Below, in pieces: positions 8,802 through 63,484 of a stretch of DNA of 64,000 nucleotides. The DNA lies in assembly GCA_035378955.1 (NCBI GenBank), contig DAOSUS010000008.1:6668-70667 (forward strand), given 5' to 3'. Source of the stretch: Candidatus Hydrogenedens sp. Its GTDB lineage: Bacteria; Hydrogenedentota; Hydrogenedentia; Hydrogenedentales; Hydrogenedentaceae. Under the pieces are notes generated by a model that was given only the letters and a program-made list of their open reading frames with translations, did no database searches and was not told the origin of the DNA. Position numbers and translations under genes: made by a program. Each line of letters begins with the position of its first letter. Within the stretch, counting starts at the first letter, position 1.

Positions 8802-8825
8802 TGCTTAAATTATCTTTAATTAGGA

Positions 8826-10022
8826 TTGTATATGATACCACGAAGATGGATACATATTTTACCCTCTGAATATAACGAAGTTCTAAATCCTTCCCACCCA
8901 TTACTATCGAATTACAATATTGTTTCTCAATGGGAAAAAGAGTTTGGTAATTTCATAGGTTCTCCCAATACGGTTGCACTTCCCTCCGGAAGAATTGGAC
9001 TTAAACTTATTTTACAATATTTGAACCTTCAAGAAAATGATGAAGTAATTATTCCAGCCCTAACATTGAAGGCATTGGTAAGTATTATCAAATCATTAGG
9101 TCTTAAACCCGTTTGTGCCGACATAGACCCTAAAACATTAAACATAGACCCCGAATCGGTACGCAATTTAATTACACCTCGAACCAAAGCCATTATCGCA
9201 TTACATACCTTTGGCAACCCCTGCCTAATTGAAGAAATATGTAAAATAGGACAGGAAAACAATATCCCTGTTATAGAAGATGCTGCTCATGCATGTGGCG
9301 CTAAAATACAAAATAAATTCGTAGGAACATTTGGATATGCGGGCTTTTTTAGTTTTGATATATCTAAACCTATAAATACATACGGTGGGGGAATGCTTGT
9401 TAGTGAAGACTTATCACTAATTGATTTCGTAAGAGAATATAATAAAAAACTAATTTTAGACACAACTGAAATAACCAAAAAAGCAAAGTCTATTAAGTTA
9501 GAACAGGCACTATATAAATTAAAACTTATGTATCCCATTCTCTTTTTAAGACTGTTCCGATTTTTCTTCAAGTCTCTGGAATTTGTATACCGTAAAATTC
9601 AAAGTGTTCCCCCTGAAAATATCCAATTTACACCTTTACAAGCAAGTATAGGTATAGAAAAGTTATCTTTACTAAATTCAAGAATAGCGCAAAGAAATGA
9701 AGTAGCACAATTATACCGCAAATTATTATCCGATAAAATTGATATTCCTTATGTAACTTCTGAATGTATACCTTCTTATTACATGTTTGTTGTTATTCTT
9801 CCTAAAAAATCTCATAACATCTGTAGATCTCTCCTTTTCCATGGAATAGATACCGCATTTAAAGAAGAGGTTATAGATGATGTGTCCCTATTAGTTGAAA
9901 AATCACATTGTCCAAATGCGAATGGAGTTTATCCCTATTTACTTGCGTTACCTTTCTATGATGTTATTTCAAAAGATACCATTGAATATATATGTAATTG
10001 CCTGAACGAACTTGTAGAATAA
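8826..10022 (+). CDS. DegT/DnrJ/EryC1/StrS family PLP-dependent sugar aminotransferase
   Basis: Motifs DAAHACGA and the lysine-containing SFDISKPI; fold-type I sugar aminotransferase length and layout. Confidence 0.75.
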   Translation: MYMIPRRWIHILPSEYNEVLNPSHPLLSNYNIVSQWEKEFGNFIGSPNTVALPSGRIGLKLILQYLNLQENDEVIIPALTLKALVSIIKSLGLKPVCADIDPKTLNIDPESVRNLITPRTKAIIALHTFGNPCLIEEICKIGQENNIPVIEDAAHACGAKIQNKFVGTFGYAGFFSFDISKPINTYGGGMLVSEDLSLIDFVREYNKKLILDTTEITKKAKSIKLEQALYKLKLMYPILFLRLFRFFFKSLEFVYRKIQSVPPENIQFTPLQASIGIEKLSLLNSRIAQRNEVAQLYRKLLSDKIDIPYVTSECIPSYYMFVVILPKKSHNICRSLLFHGIDTAFKEEVIDDVSLLVEKSHCPNANGVYPYLLALPFYDVISKDTIEYICNCLNELVE

Positions 10023-25425: not shown

Positions 25426-28400
25426 TTATAGTGAACTATTTTCTAATTGCCGTTTTTGTTCTAACATTGAAAATACGGGTTCCACTTCTTCAGGTTTGGG
25501 AATTTTTCGAGTTTTAATTATATAAAATAATCTTCGAATATCATTTAGTACACCAATAATAGTAGGTATAAATAAAAGCGTTACTGTAGTGGAAAATACT
25601 AAACCAATTGCTAAAGAAACGGCCATCGGCTTTATGAATTGTGCCTGCATATCACGCGTAAAGAGCAATCCAACAAGTCCTCCGAATGTAGTACTTGAAG
25701 TTAAGAAAATAGCCCGAAATCTTCTCTTCCCAGCTTGAAGGATTGATGAAATAAAACTATTTCCTTCGCTAAGGTTTGCATTAAAACAATCTACAAAAAC
25801 AATGGCATCGTTAACAACCACCCCGGAAAGAGCAACAATCCCGAATAAGCTCATGAGTGTTACAATTTGTCCGAATAATAAGTGTCCAATTAGTGCTCCC
25901 ACAATTCCAAATGGAATTGTAAGCATAATCAGTATTGGCTGAGTATAGGAATGGAATATGGATGAAATAATCAGAAAAATCAGCAATAAAGCAATCGGAA
26001 ACCCTACTTTTAATGAAGCCAGAGCATCTCTACTGCTTTGTTGGGGTCCTTCAAATGACCATATTAATCCCGGATATTTCTTTTGAAGAGATGGGAGAAA
26101 AGTATTTGTTAAATCATTAATAATTTCTGTTGAATTAGTCTTTGTTGAGTCTATATCTGCTGTAACAACCACTCTTCGCATCCCATCAACGCGTGTTATT
26201 GAAGAAAATCCAGGAGTAAAATCTACATCGGCAACAGCAAATAGAGGAACTTCATATCCTTGATTGGTCCTTATACGGACTTGATTTAATATAGAAAGGT
26301 AACTACGGTCTTCACGAGGATAGCGAACCCGTATGCGGATATCATCCCTACCCCTTTGTATTCGGACAGCCTCTTCCCCAAAGAAACCACCGGCTAATTG
26401 TCTGCCTAAGGAATCCAGGGTTATTCCCAATGTTTGTGCTTCAGGTTTCAAATAAAATCTCGCTTCAATTTTTGCAGGACGGTAATCATCTTCAATCTGA
26501 TATACCCCTTCATAAGTCTTAAGTTTTTCTTTTATCTCTTGACTGGCATGAATTATATCTTGAAGATTTTCACTTCTTAACCATAATTCTATCCCCGTTC
26601 CCCGTGGACCTCCACCACTTACATCATATTTCTGTTTTAATGTCCCCGGAATTATCCCCGTCTCTTTCGCCCACATAGAACTTATTTTCTTCGCATGAAT
26701 CCCCCTTCGTTCTGTAGGTAATAACTCTACTCGAATTTCACCCACATTACTTCCACCCTGAGCAGAAAAGCCACTGCTACTCTGCCCTACGACACTATAG
26801 ATATTCTGAATTAATGGTTCACCGCTTATTGTAGTTGTCTTTTCTGCTAACCTTTTAAGAGCCTCCTCCATCCTCTTTACCGCATCTTTGGTAACATGAA
26901 AAGGTGTCCCCGCTGGGAACTCAACTTGTGCCATTAAAGAATCTCCATCAGCGTCAGAAAAGACTTCAAATTTAATAATCTGTCCTCGGACAAGTCCCAG
27001 TACCGTTAATAATATGGCTATAAAAGCAGTTAATGAAATATAACGATGTTTTAACATAGTATTTAAAATCGGGAGATATATTTTATCAATAAAAGCATCA
27101 AGAGAATCGCTAAAGAACCATCTTAGTTTTCTCAAAGGATGTTTCCGATTATCGGAATTTGAAATAGTATGAGATAAATCAGGGAGGTCATTGAGATGAG
27201 CAGGAAGTAAGAAAAGAGCTTCAGATAATGATATACTTAATGCCGAAATAACAACTATTGGTAAAATGCGGATAAACTTGCCCATAATTCCACTCACAAA
27301 CATCAATGGTAAAAATGCCGCTATTGTTGTGGTTACAGCCCCTATGACAGGCAATCCCACTTCTTCCACACCTGTTAACGCTGCCTTCATAGGTGGTAGT
27401 CCTCGCTGACGATGGTAATATATCGCTTCACCAATTACTATCCCATCATCAACCAACATACCTAACACCATGATTAACCCAAATAATGACATCATGTTTA
27501 TGGTACTTCCAAGATAATACATAATGCTAATAGCCCCTGCAAAGGAAATAGGAATGCCTAAAGTAACAAAAAAGGATAAACGAGCATTCATTAATAACAG
27601 CAACATTAAAATTACAATAATTAACCCTTGAATTCCATTTTCTTCAAGTAACTTCAATCGGGCTCGAATTAACCGGGCTCCATCGTTCCATAAAGAAATT
27701 TTTACGCCGGGAGGCAACTGTTTTTGTTTCGCCTCTACATATTTATGAACTGCATCGGATATGGCTATATCATCTTCTTCTTGTGTTTTGAAACACGAAA
27801 TTAAAACGGACTTCTCCCCATTAAAATCTGCCTCTAAGGGGTCTTCGTTAAAATCATCTCGTATTTCCGCTACCTGGTCCAGTGTAATAACTTCACCCGT
27901 AGGTTTGGCAAGCACAACTATCTTAGCCAGTTCATCCGCATAATATTTTCTTCCTATTGTTCGAACTCGTATTTCCGCTCCTTTCGAACGAATAAGTCCC
28001 CCGGAAATATTTAAGTTTCCAGAACGAATTGCTGATGCTACCTGTGAAAATGTTAGTCCTAATTTTTGAAGTTTTTCTTCCGAAATCTCAATTCCTATTT
28101 CGTACTGTTTCGCTCCAAAAATAAAAACTTGTGAAAGTTCCGGTAGGGCTTGTAATTCATCTTTTATTTGTTCCGCCCACTCTTTTAAGATTTTATCCGG
28201 CAAATTCCCTGATAAGGCAACTTGAATAACCTCACGGCGGATAGTTACTTCATTAGTTATAGGTTTCTCGGCATCTTTTGGAAATGTAGAAATAGAATCA
28301 ATAGCATTGCGAACCTTATCATAAACCTTGCTTAAATCATAACTATCCATCACCTCAATATTTGCCATTCCCATATTTTCTGAAGCAACCGTTGTATATC

Positions 28401-28638
28401 GTTTGATTCCTTCCACAGTGTCTAAAGATTCTTCAATCTTTCGACAAATTCCTTCTTCGACTTCTTCGGGGTCTGCACCAGGATAAAGCACCTGCACGGT
28501 TATCATATCCAACGAGAACTCCGGGAATAACTCTCTTCGGATTAATAACAAAGAAATTAGTCCCGCAATAAGAATAACAGCAGTTAGTATATTTGCAAAA
28601 ACACGGTTTCCGACAAAATACCCTAAAAACTGATTCAT
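25426..28638 (-). CDS. RND superfamily efflux permease (AcrB/CzcA-like)
   Basis: 1070 aa with 12 TM helices, two large periplasmic loops and conserved RND motifs. Confidence 0.85.
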   Translation of the reverse strand: MNQFLGYFVGNRVFANILTAVILIAGLISLLLIRRELFPEFSLDMITVQVLYPGADPEEVEEGICRKIEESLDTVEGIKRYTTVASENMGMANIEVMDSYDLSKVYDKVRNAIDSISTFPKDAEKPITNEVTIRREVIQVALSGNLPDKILKEWAEQIKDELQALPELSQVFIFGAKQYEIGIEISEEKLQKLGLTFSQVASAIRSGNLNISGGLIRSKGAEIRVRTIGRKYYADELAKIVVLAKPTGEVITLDQVAEIRDDFNEDPLEADFNGEKSVLISCFKTQEEDDIAISDAVHKYVEAKQKQLPPGVKISLWNDGARLIRARLKLLEENGIQGLIIVILMLLLLMNARLSFFVTLGIPISFAGAISIMYYLGSTINMMSLFGLIMVLGMLVDDGIVIGEAIYYHRQRGLPPMKAALTGVEEVGLPVIGAVTTTIAAFLPLMFVSGIMGKFIRILPIVVISALSISLSEALFLLPAHLNDLPDLSHTISNSDNRKHPLRKLRWFFSDSLDAFIDKIYLPILNTMLKHRYISLTAFIAILLTVLGLVRGQIIKFEVFSDADGDSLMAQVEFPAGTPFHVTKDAVKRMEEALKRLAEKTTTISGEPLIQNIYSVVGQSSSGFSAQGGSNVGEIRVELLPTERRGIHAKKISSMWAKETGIIPGTLKQKYDVSGGGPRGTGIELWLRSENLQDIIHASQEIKEKLKTYEGVYQIEDDYRPAKIEARFYLKPEAQTLGITLDSLGRQLAGGFFGEEAVRIQRGRDDIRIRVRYPREDRSYLSILNQVRIRTNQGYEVPLFAVADVDFTPGFSSITRVDGMRRVVVTADIDSTKTNSTEIINDLTNTFLPSLQKKYPGLIWSFEGPQQSSRDALASLKVGFPIALLLIFLIISSIFHSYTQPILIMLTIPFGIVGALIGHLLFGQIVTLMSLFGIVALSGVVVNDAIVFVDCFNANLSEGNSFISSILQAGKRRFRAIFLTSSTTFGGLVGLLFTRDMQAQFIKPMAVSLAIGLVFSTTVTLLFIPTIIGVLNDIRRLFYIIKTRKIPKPEEVEPVFSMLEQKRQLENSSL

Positions 28639-29984
28639 GAAACGGCTTCCTTATCTCCCAATTTTTGAACTTCCAGTAATGAATTTTCTATCGGATTAAT
28701 TAAACGGGTTGTAATAACTACAGTCCCTGCTTTAAGACCACTCACTATCACTTCATCGCCTTGAATATATAACCTCTCTACTTGAACTGATTTCAATCGG
28801 TTATTTTCTGCCGTATAAACTATCCCTTCAAAACTTACAGCCGTATCCGGCAACCGATATACTCCCGACAATACTTTTCCCGGAATTTTTACCTGACAAA
28901 ACATACCCTGAACCAATGGGATTTTATCATCCGTTATTGAAAAAATATTTTCCTTCTCAATACGAATAACTGTATAAACTGTCCTCGTTTTCTCATCATA
29001 CCTTTCGATACGGTTTAATAATCCTTTCCATTTATGATTTTCCTTGTCTTCTGTCCACAAAATCTCGCATTCTTTAGGCTCTAATGGTGGAAACCATGCA
29101 GAATCAATATTTATATTATCTTTCTGAAACGGAAGCCATTGGGTCGCTTGTTTTGCATCTAAGGGAACGGATATTTCCAGAATGGAATCATCTGAAAGAG
29201 TCATTACAACAGCACCAGGGTTCACATACTGCCCTGCCTCAAGATTAACTGTTTTAATCCGTGCATTAAAGGGAACTTTCACCTGGGTCCGTGATAAATT
29301 AATCTCAGCCTGAGATAATTGGGCTTCTGCGCTTTTTACTGCTTCCTCGGATTCTCTAACTTTTAAAGGATATAACTCAACGGATTGAACCAATAGGTTA
29401 TAAGCATCCAATGCCTGATTATAAGCCCTCTCTGTTTGTTCAACATTGGATTGTGTCCCTACTTTTTCTCTTTCAAATAACTGCTTTACACGCTGAAACT
29501 CTGAATAAGCCAGGTCTTTTGTGCGTTCTAATGTTTTTAGTCGTTCCTTATCAGAGGCAAACTGTTCCTGTATTCTTTTCAATGTTTGTCTCGATTGCTC
29601 TAAACCTGCTTGTGCAGACTTTAATCGCACCTGATAGTCACTGGGGTCTATTTCAAATAAAACTTCTCCCGCCGGAATAACTTCACCGGCTTCAAGTCTT
29701 GGATGTATGCGAATAACGCGTCCTGATACTTCCGGGGATATAGGAACAGTCGCTAAGGTCCGAACTTCTCCAAAACCGTTCAATATAATCGGGACATCTT
29801 CGGGCTGAGCCTGAATTACATTAACAGGAATGGGAATTTCTTCCTGTTCCGCTTGTGCAGGCGGCTTGCGAAGGGAGGAAAAGAAAACGAATGAAATAAT
29901 CCCTAATAACAAAATTAAAATAGCGATAAAAAATGAGAATAACTTTGCTATTGTTAAATATCTTTTTACTTCATCATTACTCAT
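28635..29984 (-). CDS. RND efflux membrane fusion protein (HlyD/AcrA family)
   Basis: N-terminal TM, coiled-coil hairpin, lipoyl and beta-barrel segments. It overlaps the RND gene by 4 nt (ATGA). Confidence 0.75.
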   Translation of the reverse strand: MSNDEVKRYLTIAKLFSFFIAILILLLGIISFVFFSSLRKPPAQAEQEEIPIPVNVIQAQPEDVPIILNGFGEVRTLATVPISPEVSGRVIRIHPRLEAGEVIPAGEVLFEIDPSDYQVRLKSAQAGLEQSRQTLKRIQEQFASDKERLKTLERTKDLAYSEFQRVKQLFEREKVGTQSNVEQTERAYNQALDAYNLLVQSVELYPLKVRESEEAVKSAEAQLSQAEINLSRTQVKVPFNARIKTVNLEAGQYVNPGAVVMTLSDDSILEISVPLDAKQATQWLPFQKDNINIDSAWFPPLEPKECEILWTEDKENHKWKGLLNRIERYDEKTRTVYTVIRIEKENIFSITDDKIPLVQGMFCQVKIPGKVLSGVYRLPDTAVSFEGIVYTAENNRLKSVQVERLYIQGDEVIVSGLKAGTVVITTRLINPIENSLLEVQKLGDKEAVS

Positions 29985-29998
29985 AAAATTTCCTCTCT

Positions 29999-30472
29999 TT
30001 ATTTATTGGTATTCTGAACGGTTATTAAATATTCTCTTATCTTTTTATAAACATCAACCCATTGAGATGCCGTTTCATCGCCTAAACCCTTTAACAATTC
30101 ACTTATCCCCGTTAAAATCTGATTTTCATGCCATTTTAGAGTTTCACTGGCTTCCGGTGTTAAGCGTATCTGTATCTCACGACGGTCCTCCGACGACTGT
30201 TCGCGAACTACTAAACCTAATTCTACCAATCGGTCTAACATCAAACTTGCTGCAGAAGGTGATACATATAAATATTCTGCTAACTCTTTTAATTTTAATG
30301 GCTCACAGTCCTTTATTGTAATCAACATCTGGAACTGCGGCATTGTCAGGTCATGCCCTAACTTTATTTTTTCTTTATCGGCAGAACAACAATGGAACCT
30401 GTTATGCATCCACCGTTGTATCATCTGAATTGTTTTGAATATTTCGTAGACTAACTCATCATAGCGTTCCAT
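29999..30472 (-). CDS. MarR family transcriptional regulator
   Basis: Winged-HTH MarR pattern (LTMPQFQMLITI...LAEYLYVSPSAASLMLDRLVELGLV). Confidence 0.75.
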   Translation of the reverse strand: MERYDELVYEIFKTIQMIQRWMHNRFHCCSADKEKIKLGHDLTMPQFQMLITIKDCEPLKLKELAEYLYVSPSAASLMLDRLVELGLVVREQSSEDRREIQIRLTPEASETLKWHENQILTGISELLKGLGDETASQWVDVYKKIREYLITVQNTNK

Positions 30473-30499
30473 TATTTATCTCCAAAATCTGCGAAAATC

Positions 30500-30868
30500 C
30501 TATTTTTGAATTTTTTCTTTAATTACTTCCGTCATCTGTTGAACCAACTCATCGGTAACAATTGTTTTCCCTTTTTCTACGCCTAAATCTGTTATTACAA
30601 TATGTTCAAAGGGTATTTCTCTCTTCTCAAATATTTTCTTCCCACAGGCAACAGAGCAACCATCTATTACCACATTCTTGTTTGCTGCTAATGCAGACTG
30701 TATAAAACCAGATGCATCAGATGCAACGCCTGAAAGACACGAACCACGACAAACTTTTTCTCTTACTAAATTTCTCATAACTCGGTCTGCTATCAGCCCC
30801 GTATTTGCGACACCAGAACAAGAGTAAATAAGAGTAACACCTTCTTCATTAGAACAATTACATTGCAT
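30500..30868 (-). CDS. DGC-domain putative zinc-binding protein
   Basis: Conserved D-G-C motif (VIDGCSVACG) plus additional Cys pairs. It is the first gene of the MarR-RND operon. Confidence 0.5.
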   Translation of the reverse strand: MQCNCSNEEGVTLIYSCSGVANTGLIADRVMRNLVREKVCRGSCLSGVASDASGFIQSALAANKNVVIDGCSVACGKKIFEKREIPFEHIVITDLGVEKGKTIVTDELVQQMTEVIKEKIQK

Positions 30869-31071
30869 AAACTCAATCCTTATAGTAATAGTTTTTTAAT
30901 TATTTTACCATAAAATAATTTAATAATCAAATTATTTTTTTTATTTATTATTTAATTATTAAAATATTTTATATTCTTATTAATAAAACACCAAAAATAA
31001 AAGGAAAGTTCCCTTCATGTGGTTTTTATCGTTATAATATAAACTAAAGTAAATAACTATCTTTGATTAAA

Positions 31072-32049
31072 ATGACTGCATTAGTAAAATGTGAACTTTG
31101 TCCGCGTTATTGTATTCTTGACAATGGTCAAAAAGGCGAATGCCGTATCCGCGTCAATATAGAGGGGAAACTTTATACTCTTACATATGGTCATCCCTGT
31201 TCTATCCATATTGACCCTGTAGAAAAAAAACCTCTTTATCATTTTTTACCGGGAACACCTATTTTATCGCTTGCCACTGTAGGTTGTAACCTTCATTGTA
31301 AAAATTGCCAGAATTGGGAAATATCTCAGACAGAACCTTATCAATTGGAAACAGAATTTATAGAACCTGAAAAAATTTCTACATTGGCTATCCAGTATCA
31401 ATGTCCTTCCATCGCTTATACTTATACAGAGCCATTGGCTTACTATGAATATACCTACGAGTGCTGTAAAATATCCGCTGAAAAAGGCTTAAAGAATGTT
31501 CTTGTAACCGCAGGATATATTAACGAAGAACCTTATAAAAGATTATTACCTCTTGTCCATTCTGCAAATATAGATTTAAAAGGCTTTTCAGAGGAATTTT
31601 ACAGGACGGTATGCGATGGAACTTTAAAGCCTGTATTAAAAACTTTGGAACTAACTAAAAATGCGGGCGTTGAATTAGAAGTTACAAATTTAGTTATTCC
31701 TACAATGAACGATAAAGATGAAGATTTTCAAAAACTATGCGAATGGGTAGTAAGTAATTTAGGAAAAGACACCCCATTACATTTCTCCCAATTCTATCCT
31801 CGTTACAAAATGACACATTTACCCCCAACACCTTTAGAAACCCTTCTGAAAGCGCGTCAAATTGCCTTAAATGTAGGTTTGCAATTTGTGTATATTGGGA
31901 ATATTATTCATAGAGAAAGTTCTAATACCTATTGCCCATCATGTAAAAGTTTACTTGTTGAACGATATGGCTTCAATGTTCTTCAAAATAATATTTCACA
32001 GGGGAAATGTCCCAAATGTAACACGGAGATATACGGAATATGGCAATAA
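31072..32049 (+). CDS. AmmeMemoRadiSam system radical SAM enzyme (PFL-activase-like)
   Basis: KCELCPRYC...GECRIR N-terminal Cys cluster and the CNLHCKNCQN radical-SAM motif, with the family length and layout. The ORF track starts at a TTG at 31063; ATG at 31072 is more likely. Confidence 0.75.
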   Translation: MTALVKCELCPRYCILDNGQKGECRIRVNIEGKLYTLTYGHPCSIHIDPVEKKPLYHFLPGTPILSLATVGCNLHCKNCQNWEISQTEPYQLETEFIEPEKISTLAIQYQCPSIAYTYTEPLAYYEYTYECCKISAEKGLKNVLVTAGYINEEPYKRLLPLVHSANIDLKGFSEEFYRTVCDGTLKPVLKTLELTKNAGVELEVTNLVIPTMNDKDEDFQKLCEWVVSNLGKDTPLHFSQFYPRYKMTHLPPTPLETLLKARQIALNVGLQFVYIGNIIHRESSNTYCPSCKSLLVERYGFNVLQNNISQGKCPKCNTEIYGIWQ

Positions 32050-32231
32050 ATAGACGAAGATTTTTATCATATTTTTTAACTGCTGTAATCACGAAATATG
32101 GTGTAAAAAAGCCTTCTTTAATTCGACAGACTTATGCTATACCACTACCTAATAAGAAAGTTCTTATTCATTTTACTACCAAAAATAAAAATAATATTTT
32201 TTCACCCAAACCTTCATCATGGATAGGTTGA
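32040..32231 (+). CDS. doubtful small ORF with twin-arginine-like N-terminus (MAINRRRFLSYFLTAVIT...)
   Basis: 63-codon ORF whose ATG lies inside the last codons of the radical SAM gene. It carries an RRRFLS Tat-consensus motif. It is out of frame with the downstream Memo gene. It may be spurious or a remnant. Confidence 0.15.
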   Translation: MAINRRRFLSYFLTAVITKYGVKKPSLIRQTYAIPLPNKKVLIHFTTKNKNNIFSPKPSSWIG

Positions 32232-32271
32232 AATTTAATATAATAATAAAAGGTCAATAAGGGGATATTCG

Positions 32272-33807
32272 ATGAGAAATTATTCCTATATAATTTTATT
32301 CCTTCTATTCATTGTTGTTATTCCATTTGCATGCGGAGAAAATTCCACTTCGAATAAGGAGAAAGAAGTTGGTTCTCCAAAAGTTTATAAATCACTAATA
32401 GCCGGCCAATGGTATGACGCATCTCCTCAAAAACTTACGCAGCAGATTTCGGAAATGTTTAATAAGGCAGATATAGAACCTATAGAAAATGTAATAGGAC
32501 TTATATTACCTCATGCAGGTTATATGTATTCTGGACTAACTGCATGCAAAGGGATTAAGGCAACAGATAAATCTTTATATTCCAGAATAATTATCTTGGG
32601 AACCAGTCATAGAGCACCCTTGGAGAATATTATAAGTATTCCCTCCGTAGATTTTTATGAAACACCCTTAGGACAAATACCTATTGATGTAGAAATTATT
32701 CAGGATTTAAAAAAATTTCCGTATTTTAAAGAAGTCCCTTTGGCTCAACAGGGAGAACATAGTATTGAAATTGAGTTGCCATTACTTCAATACGTTAAAA
32801 AAGACTTTAAATTAATTCCTCTAATTTGCGGAAAATTAGATTTAGAAACTACACAAAAAATAGCACAGATATTACAAAACTACATTGATGAAAAAACATT
32901 AGTCATTGCCAGTAGCGATTTCACTCATTATGGACCGAATTATAATTACATACCTTTTAGTGAGGACATTCCTAAAAATCTTAAAAAACTGGATATGGGA
33001 GCATATCAATATATAGAAAAACGGGATGTAAAGAAGTTTTATGAATATATTGAAAAAACAGGGATTACAATTTGTGGTCCGTATGGAATTGGAGTTTTAA
33101 TGTATCTATTACCCGAAAATACTCAAGTAAATCTTGTAGAATATAAACAATCCGGTGAAATTGTAAACGATTATCAGAATTCCGTAAGTTATTTCGGGAT
33201 TGCTTTCACTGGGACATGGGAAAAGAAGGAAAGAACACCTATGAATACTTCAACAACATTAACACCTGAAGAAAAAAAAGACTTATTAAAATTAGCACGC
33301 TGGACACTTGAATATGTGTTAGAACACAACAAATTGCCATCTGATAACGAAATACCCATCAAAGTAACAGAAATAATGAAAACACCACGAGCCGCCTTTG
33401 TTACTTTGAAAATAAACGAGGACCTTCGAGGTTGTATCGGCGAAATTTTTGCAACAAAACCTATGTATAAATCTGTTCTTCAAAACGCATATAATGCAGG
33501 TTTTAAAGATCCTCGATTTTACCCTATTTCAAAAGAGGAGTTACCTAAAATTAAAATTGATATATCCCTTCTTACCCATCCCCGAAAAATAAATCATTAT
33601 AACGAGATTGAATTAGGCAAACACGGAATTATTCTTAAAAAAGGTTATTATCAGGCTTTATTCTTACCGCAGGTAGCCCCTGAACAAAATTGGAATTTGC
33701 AGCAGACATTAGAACATCTGTCCATGAAAGCAGGATTACCACCTGATGGATATAAAGAAGGTGCTGAATTTGAAGTTTTTGAAGCAGAAGTATTCCACGA
33801 AGAGTAA
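32272..33807 (+). CDS. AmmeMemoRadiSam system proteins B+A fused (Memo-like domain + AMMECR1 domain) with hydrophobic N-terminal signal/anchor
   Basis: aa 1-25 hydrophobic (IILFLLFIVVIPFAC). The Memo fold motifs are AGQWYDAS, LPHAGYMYSG and GTSH. The C-terminal AMMECR1 motifs are PRAAFVTLKINEDLRGCIGE and KDPRF. Confidence 0.7.
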   Translation: MRNYSYIILFLLFIVVIPFACGENSTSNKEKEVGSPKVYKSLIAGQWYDASPQKLTQQISEMFNKADIEPIENVIGLILPHAGYMYSGLTACKGIKATDKSLYSRIIILGTSHRAPLENIISIPSVDFYETPLGQIPIDVEIIQDLKKFPYFKEVPLAQQGEHSIEIELPLLQYVKKDFKLIPLICGKLDLETTQKIAQILQNYIDEKTLVIASSDFTHYGPNYNYIPFSEDIPKNLKKLDMGAYQYIEKRDVKKFYEYIEKTGITICGPYGIGVLMYLLPENTQVNLVEYKQSGEIVNDYQNSVSYFGIAFTGTWEKKERTPMNTSTTLTPEEKKDLLKLARWTLEYVLEHNKLPSDNEIPIKVTEIMKTPRAAFVTLKINEDLRGCIGEIFATKPMYKSVLQNAYNAGFKDPRFYPISKEELPKIKIDISLLTHPRKINHYNEIELGKHGIILKKGYYQALFLPQVAPEQNWNLQQTLEHLSMKAGLPPDGYKEGAEFEVFEAEVFHEE

Positions 33808-33809
33808 TT

Positions 33810-36800
33810 GTGAAAAAATATCTATTACCCATTTCATTAGGTTTGTTTTCAATTACTGCACAAGCATTGCTTGTGCGTGATTTCTTACATTGTATCGAAG
33901 AAAACGAACTTACATTAGGTATTCTTTACTTCTTTTGGTTTTTATGGATTATTCCCGGCTCTCTTGTTGGAAAACTTTTTTACAAATATTCCTACCTTTT
34001 TCCGATTACCTCTCTTCTCTATATTCCATCATGGTTATGGGGTCATTTTCTGGTTCGTAATTCACGATATATCTCGGATATCCCAACATATGAACTCTTT
34101 AACATCCACGACCTCTTTTTATATTCTGCAATAGCACCCGCAGGGATAAGTTTCTTTACAGGATTTTTATTTACCCATTGTGTCTTATGGTGGGAGAACA
34201 ATTTTATCCATAAAACAAGTAATTCCCAACCTTCGACAATAGTTCGTCATGTATATGCTTATGAGGCTTTAGGTGCAGTATTGGGTGGAGTTATTACCTC
34301 TATTAGTATTTTTTTGGGACTTTCTCATTGGATACCCTTTTGTATTTCCGTATGGTTTCTAATTACTTCCTCTCTATTATCATTAGATTATCCATTCTTG
34401 GAAAAAGTATTACCTATTGCTCTTCTTCCATTACTCCTACTATCAACATTCCTTCTGGAATCGTGGGAAAACAAATCCCTGTGGAATCATATTACAAAAA
34501 ATGAAAATTTTAAAGGGAAAATAATTACTCAAAAAGGGGAATATTTATACGGGTATGATAATAGCCAATTTATCCTTCTACGAAACCTCAAGCCCGTATT
34601 AAGTTTTCCAAATCAGGAATACGGTTTGCATTTACTATCTACTTTCCTTGCCCAGAAAAATGATGCAAAAAACATTCTACTTATAGGAGAACCTTTTCTT
34701 TATACATTACCCTATTTAATAAATATCAACAGTATAGAAAAAATTTTATGGATACCTTTTGACTTTGAACTATCCACAAAAATTATTCCATTATTATCTG
34801 AAAATTCTCTTTTTAATAATAAAAAACTCGTATTTCCACAAGCCGAACCCCATTCTTTTTTGAAAAATACGGACGATAGATTTGACATTATCCTTGTCTA
34901 TACAAGTGACCCACAAACTATTTCTTCTAATCAATATTTAACGGATAGTTTTTTTACTTTGCTCAAAACTCATCTTGCAGATAAAGGTATAGGAGGTATT
35001 CGAATTTCGGGGGGAGAAAATTTTTTAGGTGGTGAAATAGCCACACTTGGCGCATCCATATACTTTACTTTTCAGCAGGTATTTAAAGTTAATGCATTGA
35101 AACCCGGTAATGAAACATGGTTATTCGGCTCTTTAACTCACCCTATAAGCGAGCATATACCAACCCTTGAACAACGATTGTCCGTCATATCTCAACAAAT
35201 TTCAGAAATCAAACCCAATATTGTAAGAGACTTATATCCCGCAGATAGAATTATTTTTCAAAAAAATCGTTATGAAGAAGTAAAGAAATTTATCCATGAA
35301 GACTACTTAATTGCCACAGAGAACAAATATCTCGGCTTTTTATATAGTAATCTTTTATATCTCTGGAAACAGGGTTATTCGGGATTATTAGATAAAATTA
35401 TTACCATTAAACAAATTACCCTTTTTCTTATAATCTCATCTCCCTTATGTTTCATATTAGCCCGCGGAATATATAAACGAAAATCTATTCAGAAAGGAAA
35501 AGAAAAATATCTTTCTACTACATTAGAGACATACTTTGCTATTTTTGTTATTGGCACCATTGGCATGGGGATTACTATCCTACTACTTATACAATTTCAA
35601 TACCGTTATGGGACTCTTTCAACTTATATCGGGCTATTATCATCTATGTTTATGCTGGGACTTTCAATAAGTCCTATTATTTTTAATTTTCTGTATGCAG
35701 ACAAAAATAATAAACGACCTTTCTTTGTTCTCCTCTTTCTTGTTTCTATTTGTATTTGCTATACCCTTGTAATACTGTTTGTTTTACCTCCCTATTTTTA
35801 TACTTACCTCGCTATATTCTTTTTATGGGGGCTTACTTTATCTTTTCTTCTCTCCCTGTTCCTGAATAACTTAGATAAAGAAGCAGAAACCGCTCAAATT
35901 GCTGTAAATTTAGAGGTATGGGACCACCTCGGAGCAGGAATAGGGGCTTTTATATTCCCTATTATTCTACTTCCGATTTTAGGATTACAATATGCCATCG
36001 GATATATTCTTTTTTCTCTACTCCTAATTCTTCTATGTATTCCCCTTCTTCAAAAAATCCCCACATCCCAGTCTCCGTCATGGGGAAGAATTTATGGATA
36101 TACGCTATTCCCTATTCTTGTATTATGCTTTATCTCTACAGAGATATATTACCGTTCTACAGTTCCTTTACCCGAAGATACATTTACAAAAATCGCACAG
36201 GAATTATCTGATGGGGGAAAACTCCAACCGGAAACAACAACTCTTCCTGATAACAGGGAAATTCGTTACTATTCCGTTATAAAAAAGGATGAAAACCAGA
36301 ATGAAATTATTTCCTACATCTTTTCCACTGCCTCTCTTTTCAAGGTAATTGGATATGGTGGAGAAATAGACATTGCAGTTAAAGTATCACAGGAAGGAAT
36401 CATTGAAAATATTAAGGTCATTCAATCCAATGAAACTCCTGATTATCTATCTCTTGTTGAAAATTACTTCTTTTCATATAAAGGGAAAAATATATTCCGA
36501 CCCGAAACTATATCGGTAATAGATGCCGTTAGCGGAGCCACAACAACCTCTGATGCTGTAAAAAGAGCTGTTCAGTTTGCGGGAAAGGAATTTGCTCAGA
36601 TTATCCAGAACAATAACATAAATCGCTCGGAAACATTATTTACCTATGGGACCTCTACCCCAACAACATATTCCGTATATATCTTTCTATTATTTATTCT
36701 TCTGGCAATAATCTTTCGATTTTTCTATAAAGACTTGCTTCGAACATTATGGTTAATTTCTGTAGTAGTCATTTTAGGCTTCTGGTTAAATATTCAATAC

Positions 36801-37367
36801 GGACTTTACTCTATCGTTCAATTATTATCTGCTGACAAGTTACAATTTCATTTTACTATCTCAACCCTTTTAACCATCGGCATCCCAGTTCTTGTTCTTA
36901 TTAATGGAAATATTTACTGCGGATATTTATGTCCATTCGGGGCACTGTCGGAACTAATAAGTAAATTTAATTGGATAAATAAAAGAATAACTCCTACGAA
37001 AAAAACATGGTATACAGCCCGACAATTTAAATTTATTCTTGCCTTTTTATTTTTCTTAATATACTTTTTTATACGAAAAAATAAACTCATTAGCATTGAC
37101 CCTTTACTTTCCTTTTTCACCCTGGATATGTCAAACTATATAACAATATTTGGAATTTGTGTTTTGCTGGCAAGTCTTTTTTATAACCGTTTCTGGTGCA
37201 GGGTGCTTTGTCCCACAGGTGCTTTTTTAAGTTTAATCCAATCCTTTCGGATATTTTCATTCTTCTGGCAAAGAACTTTCCCTGCACATTGCGACCTTGG
37301 AATATCAAGAACTGAAGAAATAGACTGTATTCAATGTAATCGGTGCTACAAACATGAAAAGAAATGA
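33810..37367 (+). CDS. large chimeric membrane protein: N-terminal TM + spermidine-synthase-like (PABS) domain + polytopic TM block + FMN-binding (NosR/NqrC/RnfG-type) domain + NapH/NosR-like 4Fe-4S polyferredoxin membrane domain
   Basis: GTG start 2 nt after the Memo-AMMECR1 stop. aa ~280-480 carry a PABS-like core (FDIILVYTSDPQT, cf. SpeE FDVII.D.TDP). aa ~800-930 carry an FMN_bind motif (VSGATTTSDAVKRAV). aa ~1000-1185 carry two CxxxCP motifs (CGYLCPFGA, CRVLCPTGA) and a terminal Cx11CxxCxxC. Confidence 0.6.
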   Translation: MKKYLLPISLGLFSITAQALLVRDFLHCIEENELTLGILYFFWFLWIIPGSLVGKLFYKYSYLFPITSLLYIPSWLWGHFLVRNSRYISDIPTYELFNIHDLFLYSAIAPAGISFFTGFLFTHCVLWWENNFIHKTSNSQPSTIVRHVYAYEALGAVLGGVITSISIFLGLSHWIPFCISVWFLITSSLLSLDYPFLEKVLPIALLPLLLLSTFLLESWENKSLWNHITKNENFKGKIITQKGEYLYGYDNSQFILLRNLKPVLSFPNQEYGLHLLSTFLAQKNDAKNILLIGEPFLYTLPYLININSIEKILWIPFDFELSTKIIPLLSENSLFNNKKLVFPQAEPHSFLKNTDDRFDIILVYTSDPQTISSNQYLTDSFFTLLKTHLADKGIGGIRISGGENFLGGEIATLGASIYFTFQQVFKVNALKPGNETWLFGSLTHPISEHIPTLEQRLSVISQQISEIKPNIVRDLYPADRIIFQKNRYEEVKKFIHEDYLIATENKYLGFLYSNLLYLWKQGYSGLLDKIITIKQITLFLIISSPLCFILARGIYKRKSIQKGKEKYLSTTLETYFAIFVIGTIGMGITILLLIQFQYRYGTLSTYIGLLSSMFMLGLSISPIIFNFLYADKNNKRPFFVLLFLVSICICYTLVILFVLPPYFYTYLAIFFLWGLTLSFLLSLFLNNLDKEAETAQIAVNLEVWDHLGAGIGAFIFPIILLPILGLQYAIGYILFSLLLILLCIPLLQKIPTSQSPSWGRIYGYTLFPILVLCFISTEIYYRSTVPLPEDTFTKIAQELSDGGKLQPETTTLPDNREIRYYSVIKKDENQNEIISYIFSTASLFKVIGYGGEIDIAVKVSQEGIIENIKVIQSNETPDYLSLVENYFFSYKGKNIFRPETISVIDAVSGATTTSDAVKRAVQFAGKEFAQIIQNNNINRSETLFTYGTSTPTTYSVYIFLLFILLAIIFRFFYKDLLRTLWLISVVVILGFWLNIQYGLYSIVQLLSADKLQFHFTISTLLTIGIPVLVLINGNIYCGYLCPFGALSELISKFNWINKRITPTKKTWYTARQFKFILAFLFFLIYFFIRKNKLISIDPLLSFFTLDMSNYITIFGICVLLASLFYNRFWCRVLCPTGAFLSLIQSFRIFSFFWQRTFPAHCDLGISRTEEIDCIQCNRCYKHEKK

Positions 37368-37677
37368 TTTTATTTTTTTAACTGTTTCATTACTCTACAC
37401 CACTACTTTTATTGTTATCCTTCTTTACCATGTCTTACCTGAAAAATCATCAGCAGAATTATCTTCTATACAGACAGAAGGAACTTCAATTAAACCTACA
37501 GGAACCGCAACCGATATTGAAAAAATTAAAAGCATGATAAAAACTAACAAACTTTCAGATAAGGAAGCCCTGTTTTATAAAAAGTTGACAGAGGAAGAAA
37601 ATAATAAAAATGCAAACCCTAAAGAACATCAACAAATTCGCAAGCGATGGAGACGAGGTAGGCAAGGAGAAAATTAA
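37354..37677 (+). CDS. small membrane-anchored protein with charged C-terminal tail
   Basis: 107 aa with an N-terminal TM, then a K/E-rich tail ending RKRWRRGRQGEN. It overlaps the preceding gene by 14 nt and is probably the last gene of the operon. Confidence 0.3.
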   Translation: MKRNDFIFLTVSLLYTTTFIVILLYHVLPEKSSAELSSIQTEGTSIKPTGTATDIEKIKSMIKTNKLSDKEALFYKKLTEEENNKNANPKEHQQIRKRWRRGRQGEN

Positions 37678-61308: not shown

Positions 61309-62307
61309 TCAATTTTTTATTTTTTCTGCCGGGATATTTCTATTCCAAACAACCATCGGATTACCTTCTACAAACACAATACCTGCTTCTTTTGAAGCAA
61401 AAACACGGTTGTATTTCTTGCCCGAAACTTCTCTACTAAGTTCTGCTATAACTGAAACCTTAAAACTGTTTGACTTTTCTGTAAACGGGAACTGCCAATT
61501 CGAGGACATATTATCAACTTTTATATTATACCCCGTTGTAGGTTTCCCCAATATTGTAATTAGGTCATTCATTGATTTTATCGGACGGGCATTTGTAATT
61601 TTCTGTGCTTCATCAGAATTTATGTTAAACAAAGCCATTAAAACTTCGACAGGTGCTTTATTAATATTCAAATAAGGAACAGGATTATTGGGATTGCCCG
61701 CATTCCATGTGGAAACAAAATTTATTATTTGTTCATTAAACTCTCCCTGAATGAACCCCTTTGTACCATATAGTTCTTCTACCAGATAAAACCATTCCCC
61801 TGTGGACGAGGATACTCCTGAATTTGGCAAATTTGAAACAATTCTTCTCGCTATTTCGCCATTTGTATTTAATATTTTCTGCAGCACACTTGCTGGACTG
61901 CAATTTAAATTTATTTTTCCACTTTCGTCTGTTATCCAGACTTTCACATTAACACTTATTGTATCCGATGGTTCTAATGCAAAAGTCCCATTTCCCTTAT
62001 ATTCTTGTTTATAGTAAGGGTAACTAAACTCAAGAGGACATTTATCTATTAATTCCGAAACTGTATCCGTTCGCCATGCCTTTTCTAACTCTACCAATGC
62101 GGAACTTATACCCGTTTTTGCATATTCTCTTACCCTCATTTCATCTAAAAGCAGGACAGTCCTTCTCATTTCAGTTTCTGCATCACGCACATAATACATT
62201 CCTAATAAGGCAAAAACTCCTAATAAGGATATGGCTATCATTAAAGCCACACCTTTTTTACTTGAAGTATAAAACGATTTTTGGTTTTTATTGAACATAG
62301 ATTTCAT
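61309..62307 (-). CDS. minor pseudopilin-like protein, GspK-like (C-terminal helix-hairpin-helix)
   Basis: N-terminal hydrophobic anchor (GVALMIAISLLGVFALLG). The C-terminus INKAPVEVLMALFNINSDEAQKI is HhH/SAM-like as in GspK. The start is placed at MKSMFNK (the track gives 62355). Confidence 0.4.
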   Translation of the reverse strand: MKSMFNKNQKSFYTSSKKGVALMIAISLLGVFALLGMYYVRDAETEMRRTVLLLDEMRVREYAKTGISSALVELEKAWRTDTVSELIDKCPLEFSYPYYKQEYKGNGTFALEPSDTISVNVKVWITDESGKINLNCSPASVLQKILNTNGEIARRIVSNLPNSGVSSSTGEWFYLVEELYGTKGFIQGEFNEQIINFVSTWNAGNPNNPVPYLNINKAPVEVLMALFNINSDEAQKITNARPIKSMNDLITILGKPTTGYNIKVDNMSSNWQFPFTEKSNSFKVSVIAELSREVSGKKYNRVFASKEAGIVFVEGNPMVVWNRNIPAEKIKN

Positions 62308-62936
62308 AGAATATTCCCTAACCAAAAAGTGCTTTCGCGCACTACTTGTTCCCATATCCTGTTTTCATCTACTAAAACGAAACTCACTTTCACTGCTTTT
62401 GGATAAAAAGGTTTATCCCATTGCTCTAACCAATTATTCCCATCATAGCAATGAATTTTCATTGCAAGAACACCTGTCATGATAATTTCCCTGGCTCCAC
62501 TTGGCTCTTTTTGTCCTAAAGGACTTACTACCCTAACAAGAGCAGGAACACCCCCCAAACTTCGGTCTATATAGTAAAACACCCGCATAATTGTATTCTT
62601 ATCTTCAGAATTTACATAAAGGATAGGAAACGATATTTTATCGTTATCTAAAGGAACGGATTGGTATCGTTTTTCATTTTCAATATGTCGAATTGAAGTT
62701 AAACAGCCTTTTGTAAATGTTGGAGGAACTATCTGGTCAAAATCTAATTGTAACCGATTTATTAATCTTAAATAATTAATATTAATAGCCTGCCGAATCT
62801 CAGATTGACGCCGATAATCCATAATCTTACCGAACATAACTACGCCAATAGTAGACAGCACGGAAAGAACAGCTAGAACTGTAATAATCTCAATTAAAGA
62901 AAAGCCTCTATTATATGTTCGTTTCGTTTTCTTCAT
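62304..62936 (-). CDS. pseudopilin with prepilin-type N-terminal cleavage/methylation domain
   Basis: NRGFSLIEIITVLAVLSVL matches the G-F-[ST]-L-[IL]-E motif. Confidence 0.6.
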   Translation of the reverse strand: MKKTKRTYNRGFSLIEIITVLAVLSVLSTIGVVMFGKIMDYRRQSEIRQAININYLRLINRLQLDFDQIVPPTFTKGCLTSIRHIENEKRYQSVPLDNDKISFPILYVNSEDKNTIMRVFYYIDRSLGGVPALVRVVSPLGQKEPSGAREIIMTGVLAMKIHCYDGNNWLEQWDKPFYPKAVKVSFVLVDENRIWEQVVRESTFWLGNIL

Positions 62937-63484
62937 TTCTTAATTACCTTATCAATCTGGAAACGAGGGATAATTGAATTGATTGTATAATATTTCGTTC
63001 GCCCAAATTCTTTATATATTACAGTAACTACTATTTCGTAATAACTATTATCTTCGGGCAATAATTTTCCGAATGCTTTCCATCGAAATTTTTGTGAGAT
63101 ATTTTTATAATTTCTAAAACTTGCCCAATCTGGGGGCGCTATAATAGGTATATCCGCAACATTCCCCGCCTTGGCTTCATCTTCTGATGTTAAAATAGGA
63201 AAAACTCCTTCTTTATCGTTAGCCTCAGAAATTTTCCAGATAAATTTCTCTGGGCAATTTTTCAAATAATTCAATTTTTCATTTGCTAAATTACTGGCTA
63301 ATAGGGCATTTTGAGATGTTTGTGCCAGATTTAAACTTAATGTAAACATCTGCACTAATGCAGTTATTGCTATGCTTACCACAGCCAGTGCAACAATTAA
63401 CTCGATTAAAGTAAAACCTCTTGTTCTCTTCAACCATAACATTTTATTCTTATTATAATTTTTTCTTGCCATAAGAAATACCAT
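62933..63484 (-). CDS. pseudopilin with prepilin-type N-terminal cleavage/methylation domain
   Basis: RGFTLIELIVALAVVSIAITAL. The probable true start is at M15 (MLWLKRT.., ~63442). Confidence 0.6.
   Translation of the reverse strand: MVFLMARKNYNKNKMLWLKRTRGFTLIELIVALAVVSIAITALVQMFTLSLNLAQTSQNALLASNLANEKLNYLKNCPEKFIWKISEANDKEGVFPILTSEDEAKAGNVADIPIIAPPDWASFRNYKNISQKFRWKAFGKLLPEDNSYYEIVVTVIYKEFGRTKYYTINSIIPRFQIDKVIKK

Follow-up and report, generated by a model that had tools for sequence, protein, structure and literature searches.

Memo and AMMECR1 are two ancient protein families, of which MEMO1 is known from cell migration and cancer and AMMECR1 from the AMME contiguous-gene syndrome. We know of no established biochemical function for either family and of no established target for their partner, a radical S-adenosylmethionine (SAM) enzyme; Memo gene contexts have reportedly been tied to isoprenoid modification. 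The three proteins make up the AmmeMemoRadiSam system, which is defined by the models TIGR04335 (AMMECR1, protein A), TIGR04336 (Memo, protein B) and TIGR04337 (radical SAM enzyme). Here, we analysed a stretch of 64,000 nucleotides from Candidatus Hydrogenedens sp. (phylum Hydrogenedentota; assembly GCA_035378955.1, contig DAOSUS010000008.1, positions 6,668 to 70,667 of the forward strand). This stretch, in the following called the window, contains a gene for a fused Memo-AMMECR1 protein that starts with a hydrophobic extension, and all coordinates below are positions within it.

Cytoplasmic radical SAM enzymes whose targets are exported later are known from anSME and the sulfatases, from QhpD and QhpC (the small gamma subunit of quinohemoprotein amine dehydrogenase) and from PqqE and PqqA. 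Membrane-bound redox conduits of the NapH/NosR/PceC class form another point of comparison. According to a survey of flavinylation (Meheust et al. 2021, PMC8238504), NapH-like flavinylated proteins are modular conduits to extracytosolic oxidoreductases, mostly of undescribed identity; Memo-AMMECR1 (PF01875, PF01871) appears neither in its text nor in the supplements searched.

The locus in the window shares with the AmmeMemoRadiSam system that all three models score above their curated cutoffs on adjacent genes. It differs in that B and A are fused, in the presence of an export signal and in two more conserved genes, encoding a small open reading frame (ORF) and a large membrane protein. Judged by its defining models, the system is an AmmeMemoRadiSam member, and its gene content marks it as a distinct variant that is fused, exported and extended. 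We consider it likely that the fusion is exported, probably as a tethered lipoprotein, and works in a conserved membrane-spanning cassette together with a redox conduit and a small protein.

The N-terminal extension of the fusion

The fusion gene and its parts are arranged as follows.

32272..33807 (+): Memo-AMMECR1 fusion gene (AmmeMemoRadiSam proteins B and A), 511 residues, beginning MRNYSYIILFLLFIVVIPFACGENSTSNKEKEVGSPKVYKSLIAGQWYDAS
32272..32331 (+): predicted signal peptide, residues 1-20, with the n-region MRNYSY (one Arg) and the hydrophobic region IILFLLFIVVIPFA (7-20), from hydropathy and hydrophobic moment
32332..32334 (+): Cys21, candidate lipidated cysteine in a lipobox-like I-P-F-A-C
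32335..32391 (+): putative flexible polar tether, residues 22-40 (GENSTSNKEKEVGSPKVYK); the AlphaFold2 confidence score (predicted local distance difference test, pLDDT) is below 50 over residues 16-33
32392..33207 (+): Memo domain, residues 41-312, TIGR04336 and Pfam Memo
33283..33795 (+): AMMECR1 domain, residues 338-508, TIGR04335 and Pfam AMMECR1

Signal and topology calls were made by simple hydropathy, charge and pattern rules plus cross-genome comparison. The best 19-residue Kyte-Doolittle mean of the N-terminus is 2.37 (residues 4-22), and residues 7-20 are neither charged nor strongly polar. Residues 4-21 have an Eisenberg mean hydrophobicity of 0.88 with a hydrophobic moment of 0.02, a combination which points to a membrane-inserting core and not to an amphipathic helix. 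The fusion N-terminus is thus very probably an export signal, as judged from these values and from the comparison of homologues given below.

The extension precedes two intact domains. Against the NCBIfam models, residues 41-312 score 228.1 bits with TIGR04336 (cutoff 26) and residues 338-508 score 168 bits with TIGR04335 (cutoff 99), while Pfam places the domain limits at 43-309 and 339-508. Five residues of the Memo domain (H81, H113, D216, H219 and C268), which we take, also from the alignment with MEMO1, to be the equivalents of the MEMO1 metal ligands, are all invariant in alignments of 50 and 43 sequences, as is the LRGCIG motif (385-390) of the AMMECR1 domain. The AlphaFold2 model of the fusion, based on 43 aligned homologues, has a mean pLDDT of 90.6 and is confident for residues 38-511. 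Foldseek searches with this model retrieved MEMO1 (target-normalised TM-score 0.86-0.87) and the AMMECR1-type archaeal structures 1zq7 and 1vaj. Human MEMO1 (PDB 3bcz; 7kq8, iron-bound; 7l5c, copper-bound) has the same fold at 32-33% identity, but is a cytosolic single-domain protein without a signal and without an AMMECR1 fusion. Its residue 9 aligns at residue 43 of the fusion, which leaves about 35-40 additional N-terminal residues. Residues 1-37 lie outside the modelled fold: residues 4-16 form an isolated low-confidence helix and are followed by the low-scoring stretch listed above, and in the model this pattern is that of a signal and then a flexible tether.

The closest relatives of the fusion are found in Candidatus Hydrogenedens (99-68% identity), followed by Sedimentisphaerales and Phycisphaerae at about 50%. 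A hydrophobic N-terminal segment is shared by 110 of the 120 best homologues, and the remaining 10 are mostly truncated or interrupted. Among the 110, positive charge is biased towards the N-terminal flank of the segment in 83 and towards the C-terminal flank in 14, while 13 show no difference; this distribution favours an orientation with the N-terminus inside and the C-terminus outside. In an exhaustive search of 1.84 billion cluster representatives, we classified the 150 best fusions: 100 have a signal (37 of them with a Cys), 36 lack the extension, 9 are ambiguous and 5 are fragments. With the fragments left out, a signal is thus found on 100 of 145 (about 70%) diverse cluster representatives. 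Taken together, the homologue and cluster counts indicate that exported Memo-AMMECR1 fusions form a large class and are no oddity of one genome.

Three forms of signal occur among fusions encoded in the cassette described below: lipoboxes, uncleaved-looking anchors with long Pro/Ala/Lys/Glu linkers, and short classical cleavable signals. Examples of the last form are ..GLSFA|QEP, ..TGSAA|EKRV, ..CGQLAA|KTIN, ..SLMARA|ETLN and ..GVYIMA|KNTD. Only an exported C-terminal domain fits all of these forms. The tether keeps its low-complexity character in orthologues, its sequence is not kept.

For the protein in the window, we lean towards a lipoprotein signal of the signal peptidase (SPase) II type with lipidated Cys21, on the basis of several sequence features. 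Arg2 is followed by the uncharged residues 7-20, in line with the lipoprotein rule for the n- and h-region, which asks for 7-22 residues. A Cys stands directly after the hydrophobic region in 13 of 13 Hydrogenedentota-type homologues of at least 68% identity, and likewise in the more distant sequences P0014-P0016, L006 and L028. It is absent from L044 and from many Planctomycetota orthologues, which have anchors.

These results bear on what the sequence-only reading of this stretch had proposed. Its hydrophobic signal or anchor on the fusion is confirmed by hydropathy, by the start-codon analysis given below and by homologue conservation. A non-cytoplasmic location, which it had derived from the signal, is supported as well, with an extracytoplasmic position being most likely in view of the 110 of 120 homologues, the charge bias and the cleavable signals. 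Where it had left the choice between a signal peptide and a type II anchor, the export signal stands and is refined to a likely lipoprotein signal with Cys21. The extension is indeed extra relative to Memo proteins, as seen in the MEMO1 alignment, and it is kept in orthologues. The premise that Memo and AMMECR1 homologues are normally cytoplasmic fails for the fused clade, in which about 70% of the 145 clusters bear a signal.

The conserved gene cassette

Around the fusion, further genes of the cassette and their domains were located.

31063..32049 (+): radical SAM enzyme of the AmmeMemoRadiSam system, 328 residues, without a signal sequence; TIGR04337; Pfam Radical_SAM at residues 72-225
32040..32231 (+): conserved small ORF, unannotated here, 63 residues, MAINRRRFLSYFLTAVITKYG..SPKPSSWIG-stop
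33810..37367 (+): polytopic membrane protein, 1185 residues, with a GTG start 2 nt after the fusion stop; Pfam Spermine_synth, FMN_bind and Fer4_5
34458..35411 (+): spermidine-synthase-like soluble domain, residues 217-534 of the membrane protein, predicted periplasmic by the parity of K/R loops
36351..36581 (+): FMN_bind domain (FMN, flavin mononucleotide), residues 848-924, PF04205, E = 3.6e-14
36717..37289 (+): NapH/NosR-like membrane iron-sulfur module, residues 970-1160, Pfam Fer4_5 (PF12801) twice; CGYLCP and CRVLCP
37354..37677 (+): 107-residue ORF with an N-terminal transmembrane helix, overlapping the end of the large membrane gene by 14 nt

By cassette, we mean the radical SAM enzyme, the small ORF, the exported fusion and the membrane protein of about 1185 residues. 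Four separate locus look-ups (Hydrogenedens, another member of the Hydrogenedentota, Sedimentisphaerales and a planctomycete-like contig) share the order radical SAM enzyme, fusion and a Spermine_synth/FMN_bind/Fer4_5 protein of 1184-1314 residues; ApbE is next to it in one of them. We then scanned genomes, one per species, and obtained 80 loci (numbered from L001 onward), which were annotated locally with phmmer. The signal was distributed over these loci as follows.

Large membrane protein beside the fusion, 46 loci: signal on 42; the remaining 4 run into a contig end
No large membrane protein nearby, signal-bearing fusion, 23 loci: signal on 23
No large membrane protein nearby, signal-less fusion, 16 loci: signal on 0

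The association between signal and cassette is significant (42/0 against 23/16; Fisher's exact p = 1.1e-6). None of the 16 signal-less fusions comes with the cassette, and 15 of them also lack an adjacent radical SAM gene. The sequence-only reading had linked the signal to the outward-facing FMN_bind domain of the downstream gene; this link holds, as the genes are adjacent in about 45 loci and every such fusion with a complete N-terminus bears a signal. Complete cassettes were found in 39 loci, each with the radical SAM gene upstream of the fusion, and their hosts are Hydrogenedentota, Planctomycetota, Kiritimatiellia, Lentisphaerota/Victivallales and deltaproteobacterial or Myxococcales genomes.

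Some loci depart from this arrangement. In a metagenome-assembled genome of Akkermansia muciniphila (L059), a species which is culturable, a signal-bearing orphan fusion (8001-9458, MKWVGLLAVLISACVLFLIVC..) has neither a radical SAM gene nor a membrane partner in the available 8 kb upstream and 2.3 kb downstream. In two anammox loci from Brocadiaceae and Scalindua (L064 9713-10276, L069 9618-10181), a second, stand-alone AMMECR1-like ORF follows the fusion, and the radical SAM gene beside the fusion is only a weak match.

The radical SAM gene lies 222 nt upstream of the fusion, and its product, which is presumed to be cytoplasmic, scores 385 bits with TIGR04337 (cutoff 220). It stays below the NCBIfam cutoffs for glycyl-radical activases (PflA 51.9 vs 231.75; NrdG2 40.9 vs 131) and is, by these scores, related to the PflA/NrdG-type activases without being a member.

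The 222-nt 'intergenic' stretch harbours the small ORF, whose ATG overlaps the radical SAM stop by 10 nt. Its product has a twin-arginine motif, then a stretch of weak hydrophobicity, and a basic tail that ends in W-x-G. Each of the 39 complete cassettes has an orthologue, of 55-67 residues and always immediately 5' of the fusion gene. In about 31 of 35 loci scored, the ORF begins before the radical SAM gene has ended, with an overlap of 4 nt (ATGA), 10 nt or 1 nt. From this arrangement, the small ORF appears to be translationally coupled to the radical SAM gene. It was not found in L070, L079 and L081, the three loci inspected in which a radical SAM gene adjoins the fusion without a large membrane protein. 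In an alignment of 24 sequences, R4, W58 and the terminal G60 are invariant and R3 and F6 conserved to at least 90%; the consensus reads MTRRxFIxxL, a hydrophobic region and PRRFxxAVRxxxYPGxxKxLxxIxKQxKWxG. Versions from deltaproteobacteria, Myxococcales and gamma-proteobacteria end in DLAG or NLAG. Compared with the motif (S/T)-R-R-x-F-L-K of twin-arginine translocation (Tat) signals, the copy in the window reads N-R-R-R-F-L-S, and 118 of 120 database homologues have the arginine pair within their first 10 residues. The small proteins reach a best 12-residue Kyte-Doolittle mean of 1.89 (1.36 for the copy in the window), compared with 2.84 for the fusion signals of the same loci (Mann-Whitney p = 2e-11), and their last 35 residues have a net charge of about +7 to +9. 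One of six copies tested, the orthologue in L004, passes the Tat-signal model TIGR01409 (21 vs 16.7 bits), whereas the copy in the window matches neither TIGR01409 nor PF10518. A simple scan for TatA motifs found none in the window, which is uninformative for a piece of this size.

Between the window and L001, differences in the small ORF fall on the three codon positions as 12/7/21, a coding pattern. Apart from the Tat-signal match of the L004 orthologue, searches of Pfam and NCBIfam returned nothing significant. All 180 database clusters of the small protein are labelled 'hypothetical protein', and none has a Pfam domain. The ORF frequently escapes gene callers, which passed over it in the Hydrogenedens-type assemblies L001-L003 as well as in L004. 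The most similar described item is TIGR02811 ('formate dehydrogenase region TAT target', 66 residues), which resembles it in size, N-terminal RRxF, the possession of a C-terminal motif and its redox gene cluster. There is, however, no sequence relationship (E = 0.21 for one orthologue), and the small protein described here has (K/R)W(S/A)G or (D/N)LAG at its end, while its gene is coupled to that of a radical SAM enzyme.

The topology of the large membrane protein was predicted from hydropathy and K+R counts averaged over 31 orthologues, a home-made procedure and not a validated predictor. The predicted layout starts with the N-terminus inside and seven transmembrane helices, continues with a 318-residue outward loop (the spermidine-synthase-like domain), eight helices, a 172-residue outward loop (the FMN_bind part) and five helices, and ends with the NapH/NosR-like C-terminus inside. 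Loops rich and poor in K/R alternate without exception, placing FMN outside and the CX3CP loops inside. The flavinylation motif is S908-G-A-T911 (Thr911 codon 36540..36542), of which G909, A910 and T911 are invariant in the 31 orthologues. Invariant cysteines are C1037, C1041, C1130 and C1134 (CX3CP) as well as C1161, C1173, C1176 and C1179 (C-terminal cluster). For PceC, which is homologous, the FMN domain was located experimentally on the exocytoplasmic side, with FMN bound covalently to the equivalent Thr (Buttet et al. 2018, PMC5928378).

NCBIfam matches of the large protein are far below threshold (NosR 49.6 vs 1000; NapH 29 vs 213; also RnfG), and the protein would work like the NapH/NosR/PceC class without being an equivalog. 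With these conduits it shares the FMN_bind S-G-A-T motif, two CX3CP motifs, multiple transmembrane helices and, in six loci, an adjoining ApbE gene (L005, 13527-14603; L012, L019, L020, L028 and L052). It differs in that the FMN/NapH module sits behind 15 extra transmembrane helices and an outward spermidine-synthase-like domain, and in that the partner enzyme would be Memo-AMMECR1. The window has a degenerate form (IGEPF) of the glycine-rich motif of the spermidine-synthase-like domain, of which the family retains only a part (IGsG), and the domain may be a binding module and not an enzyme. Its predicted position is the periplasmic side, where SAM or decarboxylated SAM is not expected. The 107-residue ORF downstream is conserved only in the Hydrogenedens-type loci L001, L002 and L003 and has no Pfam or NCBIfam match; whether it belongs to the cassette is uncertain.

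A proposed mechanism and its alternatives

We propose that the fusion precursor crosses SecYEG, is lipidated at Cys21 and cut between Ala20 and Cys21, after which a flexible tether of about 19 residues would hold the folded two-domain enzyme to a membrane on its periplasmic side. Some orthologues would reach the periplasm by an ordinary cleavable signal, others by an uncleaved anchor and a long Pro/Ala/Lys/Glu linker. The radical SAM enzyme would stay in the cytoplasm. In the large protein, the iron-sulfur part would face the cytoplasm and the flavinylated FMN and spermidine-synthase-like domains the periplasm, and electrons would move through it between the cytoplasmic or quinone pool and the periplasmic Memo metal centre. 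A periplasmic Memo-AMMECR1 with an intact metal site is a plausible electron partner of the large protein. The small protein would bridge the compartments, either as a substrate that is modified before Tat export or as a subunit. We infer the steps of export, lipidation, electron transfer to Memo and bridging by the small protein from genome sequence.

Several observations weigh against this interpretation. The I-P-F-A-C motif fails PROSITE PS51257 and both G+LPP patterns, with Pro at -3 and Phe at -2 (Ala at -1 fits), so that the lipoprotein assignment is a likelihood and not a membership claim. A hydrophobic N-terminal stretch is common in the window with its GC content of 35% (20 of 50 ORFs of at least 120 residues), and the significance of the extension therefore lies in its conservation in GC-rich orthologues of other phyla and not in hydrophobicity alone. 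No ApbE gene was found in the window by tblastn, though it could lie elsewhere in the genome, and the functional coupling of Memo, AMMECR1 and the radical SAM enzyme is argued from gene context alone.

The sequence-only reading had pointed to a puzzle, as the radical SAM enzyme must be cytoplasmic while the fusion appears to be exported. The conserved small twin-arginine ORF now provides a candidate answer: its product may link the enzyme in the cytoplasm with the components in the periplasm. A Tat route suits cargo that is folded, cross-linked or complexed before export, and such a state would explain why a mature peptide of about 35 residues needs Tat. A possible, though speculative, version of this idea makes the small protein the true substrate, which the radical SAM enzyme would modify in the cytoplasm, Tat would export and Memo-AMMECR1 would finish in the periplasm with electrons from the conduit. 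At its C-terminus, the small protein has hydrophobic-(Ser/Ala)-Gly, similar to the R-V-(S/A)-G glycine loop on which glycyl-radical activases act. The systems of anSME, QhpD and PqqE offer an analogy, and only an analogy, in that the gene for a cytoplasmic radical SAM enzyme neighbours one for a small or exported polypeptide, which finally joins redox partners in the periplasm. The enzyme described here is PflA-like, without significant similarity to SPASM-type peptide maturases, among which the sole match was StsB (24.7 bits, cutoff 625), and the small protein belongs to no known family. That the small protein instead escorts the radical SAM enzyme through Tat, giving a periplasmic radical SAM system, we regard as very improbable.

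But could the puzzle be solved without the small ORF? The radical SAM enzyme might modify the unfolded fusion precursor before it enters the Sec pathway, or a lipid or small molecule that reaches the periplasmic leaflet. The enzyme is most similar to PflA-type protein activators, though far below their cutoffs, and radical SAM maturation before export has a precedent in anSME with the sulfatases. This solution is possible, if tentative. It leaves unexplained why an ORF with RRxF and an invariant W/L-x-G occurs in 39 of 39 complete cassettes, why its start and the radical SAM stop overlap (1, 4 or 10 nt) in about 31 of 35 loci, and why it is missing from L070, L079 and L081, which lack the membrane protein.

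The type of export is a separate question. The fusion might be exported without becoming a lipoprotein, either as a soluble periplasmic protein after an SPase I cut (e.g. after Ala20-Cys21-Gly22) or on an uncut type II anchor in the inner membrane. The failure of the strict lipobox patterns speaks for this possibility, and A-C-G provides small residues at -3 and -1. Furthermore, 46 of the 110 segment-bearing homologues have a lipobox-like Cys, whereas 64 of the 120 close homologues, as well as 25 of 46 cassette loci, do without it and have cleavable signals or long anchors. In the Hydrogenedentota, however, the Cys after the hydrophobic region is kept while its neighbours vary: the motif at this position reads PFAC, STNC, STSC, AISC, NASC, LTAC, MTAC, LISC or LTGC in orthologues, of which LTAC, LISC and LTGC are canonical lipoboxes. 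A Cys followed by a low-complexity polar tether is also the typical lipoprotein layout. Other lipoprotein-like N-termini in the window number two or three, too few for a consensus, and two of them share non-canonical boxes (NLSC, FFLC). For the protein in the window, export as a non-lipoprotein therefore seems rather unlikely to us.

The puzzle would disappear altogether if the anchor were inserted with its N-terminus outside and its C-terminus inside. Memo-AMMECR1 would then share the cytoplasm with the radical SAM enzyme, and none of the three AmmeMemoRadiSam proteins would be in a different compartment. Of the 110 homologues, 14 have more positive charge on the C-terminal side, e.g. ..NSCKKK.., in favour of this orientation. 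These K-rich flanks sit after lipobox cysteines, though, where they are normal, and the N-terminal flank is the more positive one in 83. Cassette orthologues with classical cleavable signals or canonical lipoboxes can only export their C-terminal part, and both soluble domains of the neighbouring large protein are predicted to face outward, which leaves the inverted anchor with hardly any likelihood.

For the start codon, ATG, GTG or TTG occurs in frame within the first 100 codons only at residues 1, 62 and 85, residue 62 falls within the Memo domain, and an in-frame TAA stands 11 codons 5' of the ATG at 32272. This ATG is the sole start that leaves the Memo domain intact. It is preceded by a Shine-Dalgarno-like motif, listed here.

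32259..32265 (+): Shine-Dalgarno-like AAGGGGA, read from the sequence, ending 6 nt 5' of the fusion ATG

The weakest explanation, that translation really starts further downstream and the extension was annotated in error, or that it forms a cytoplasmic amphipathic helix, could draw on the AT-rich genome with its many hydrophobic N-terminal stretches, but it is effectively refuted by the position of the next start inside a domain that aligns from residues 41-43, by the Shine-Dalgarno-like motif, by the hydrophobic moment of 0.02 and by the presence of the extension in GC-rich orthologues of other phyla.

Neighbouring genes and significance

Upstream of the cassette, a block of divergent genes was identified, and two more ORFs with recognisable N-termini lie near the far end of the window.

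25426..30868 (-): divergent upstream genes, comprising the four following
30500..30868 (-): DGC-domain protein
29999..30472 (-): MarR-type regulator
28635..29984 and 25426..28638 (-): efflux pair of the resistance-nodulation-division (RND) type
62304..63484 (-): two adjacent ORFs with prepilin-like N-termini (..GFSLIEIITVLAV.. and ..GFTLIELIVALAV..), typical of type IV pilins or type II secretion pseudopilins

The order of the DGC, MarR and RND genes is identical in L001, and the DGC gene is also present in L002. An outer-membrane factor (OEP) lies further along in L001, which fits a cell envelope with two membranes.

In the searchable literature, AmmeMemoRadiSam appears in passing mentions only. 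We found no pairing of AMMECR1 with flavinylation, NosR, NapH, FMN-binding or twin-arginine there, and AMMECR1 is absent from the top-ranked literature on signal peptide, lipoprotein or periplasmic versions. In the searchable literature, we came across no account of the exported version, of its link to a flavinylated conduit or of the small protein; Burroughs et al. 2019 may already cover membrane-associated Memo contexts.

The existence of an exported, fused clade tied to a flavinylated conduit suggests that the chemistry of Memo and AMMECR1 can run outside the cytoplasm and that it is redox chemistry. The small ORF provides a concrete candidate for a substrate or partner in this chemistry. 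If the small protein were indeed the substrate, the Memo and AMMECR1 families would have their first defined one, and the product might be a peptide-derived cofactor or a modified small subunit.

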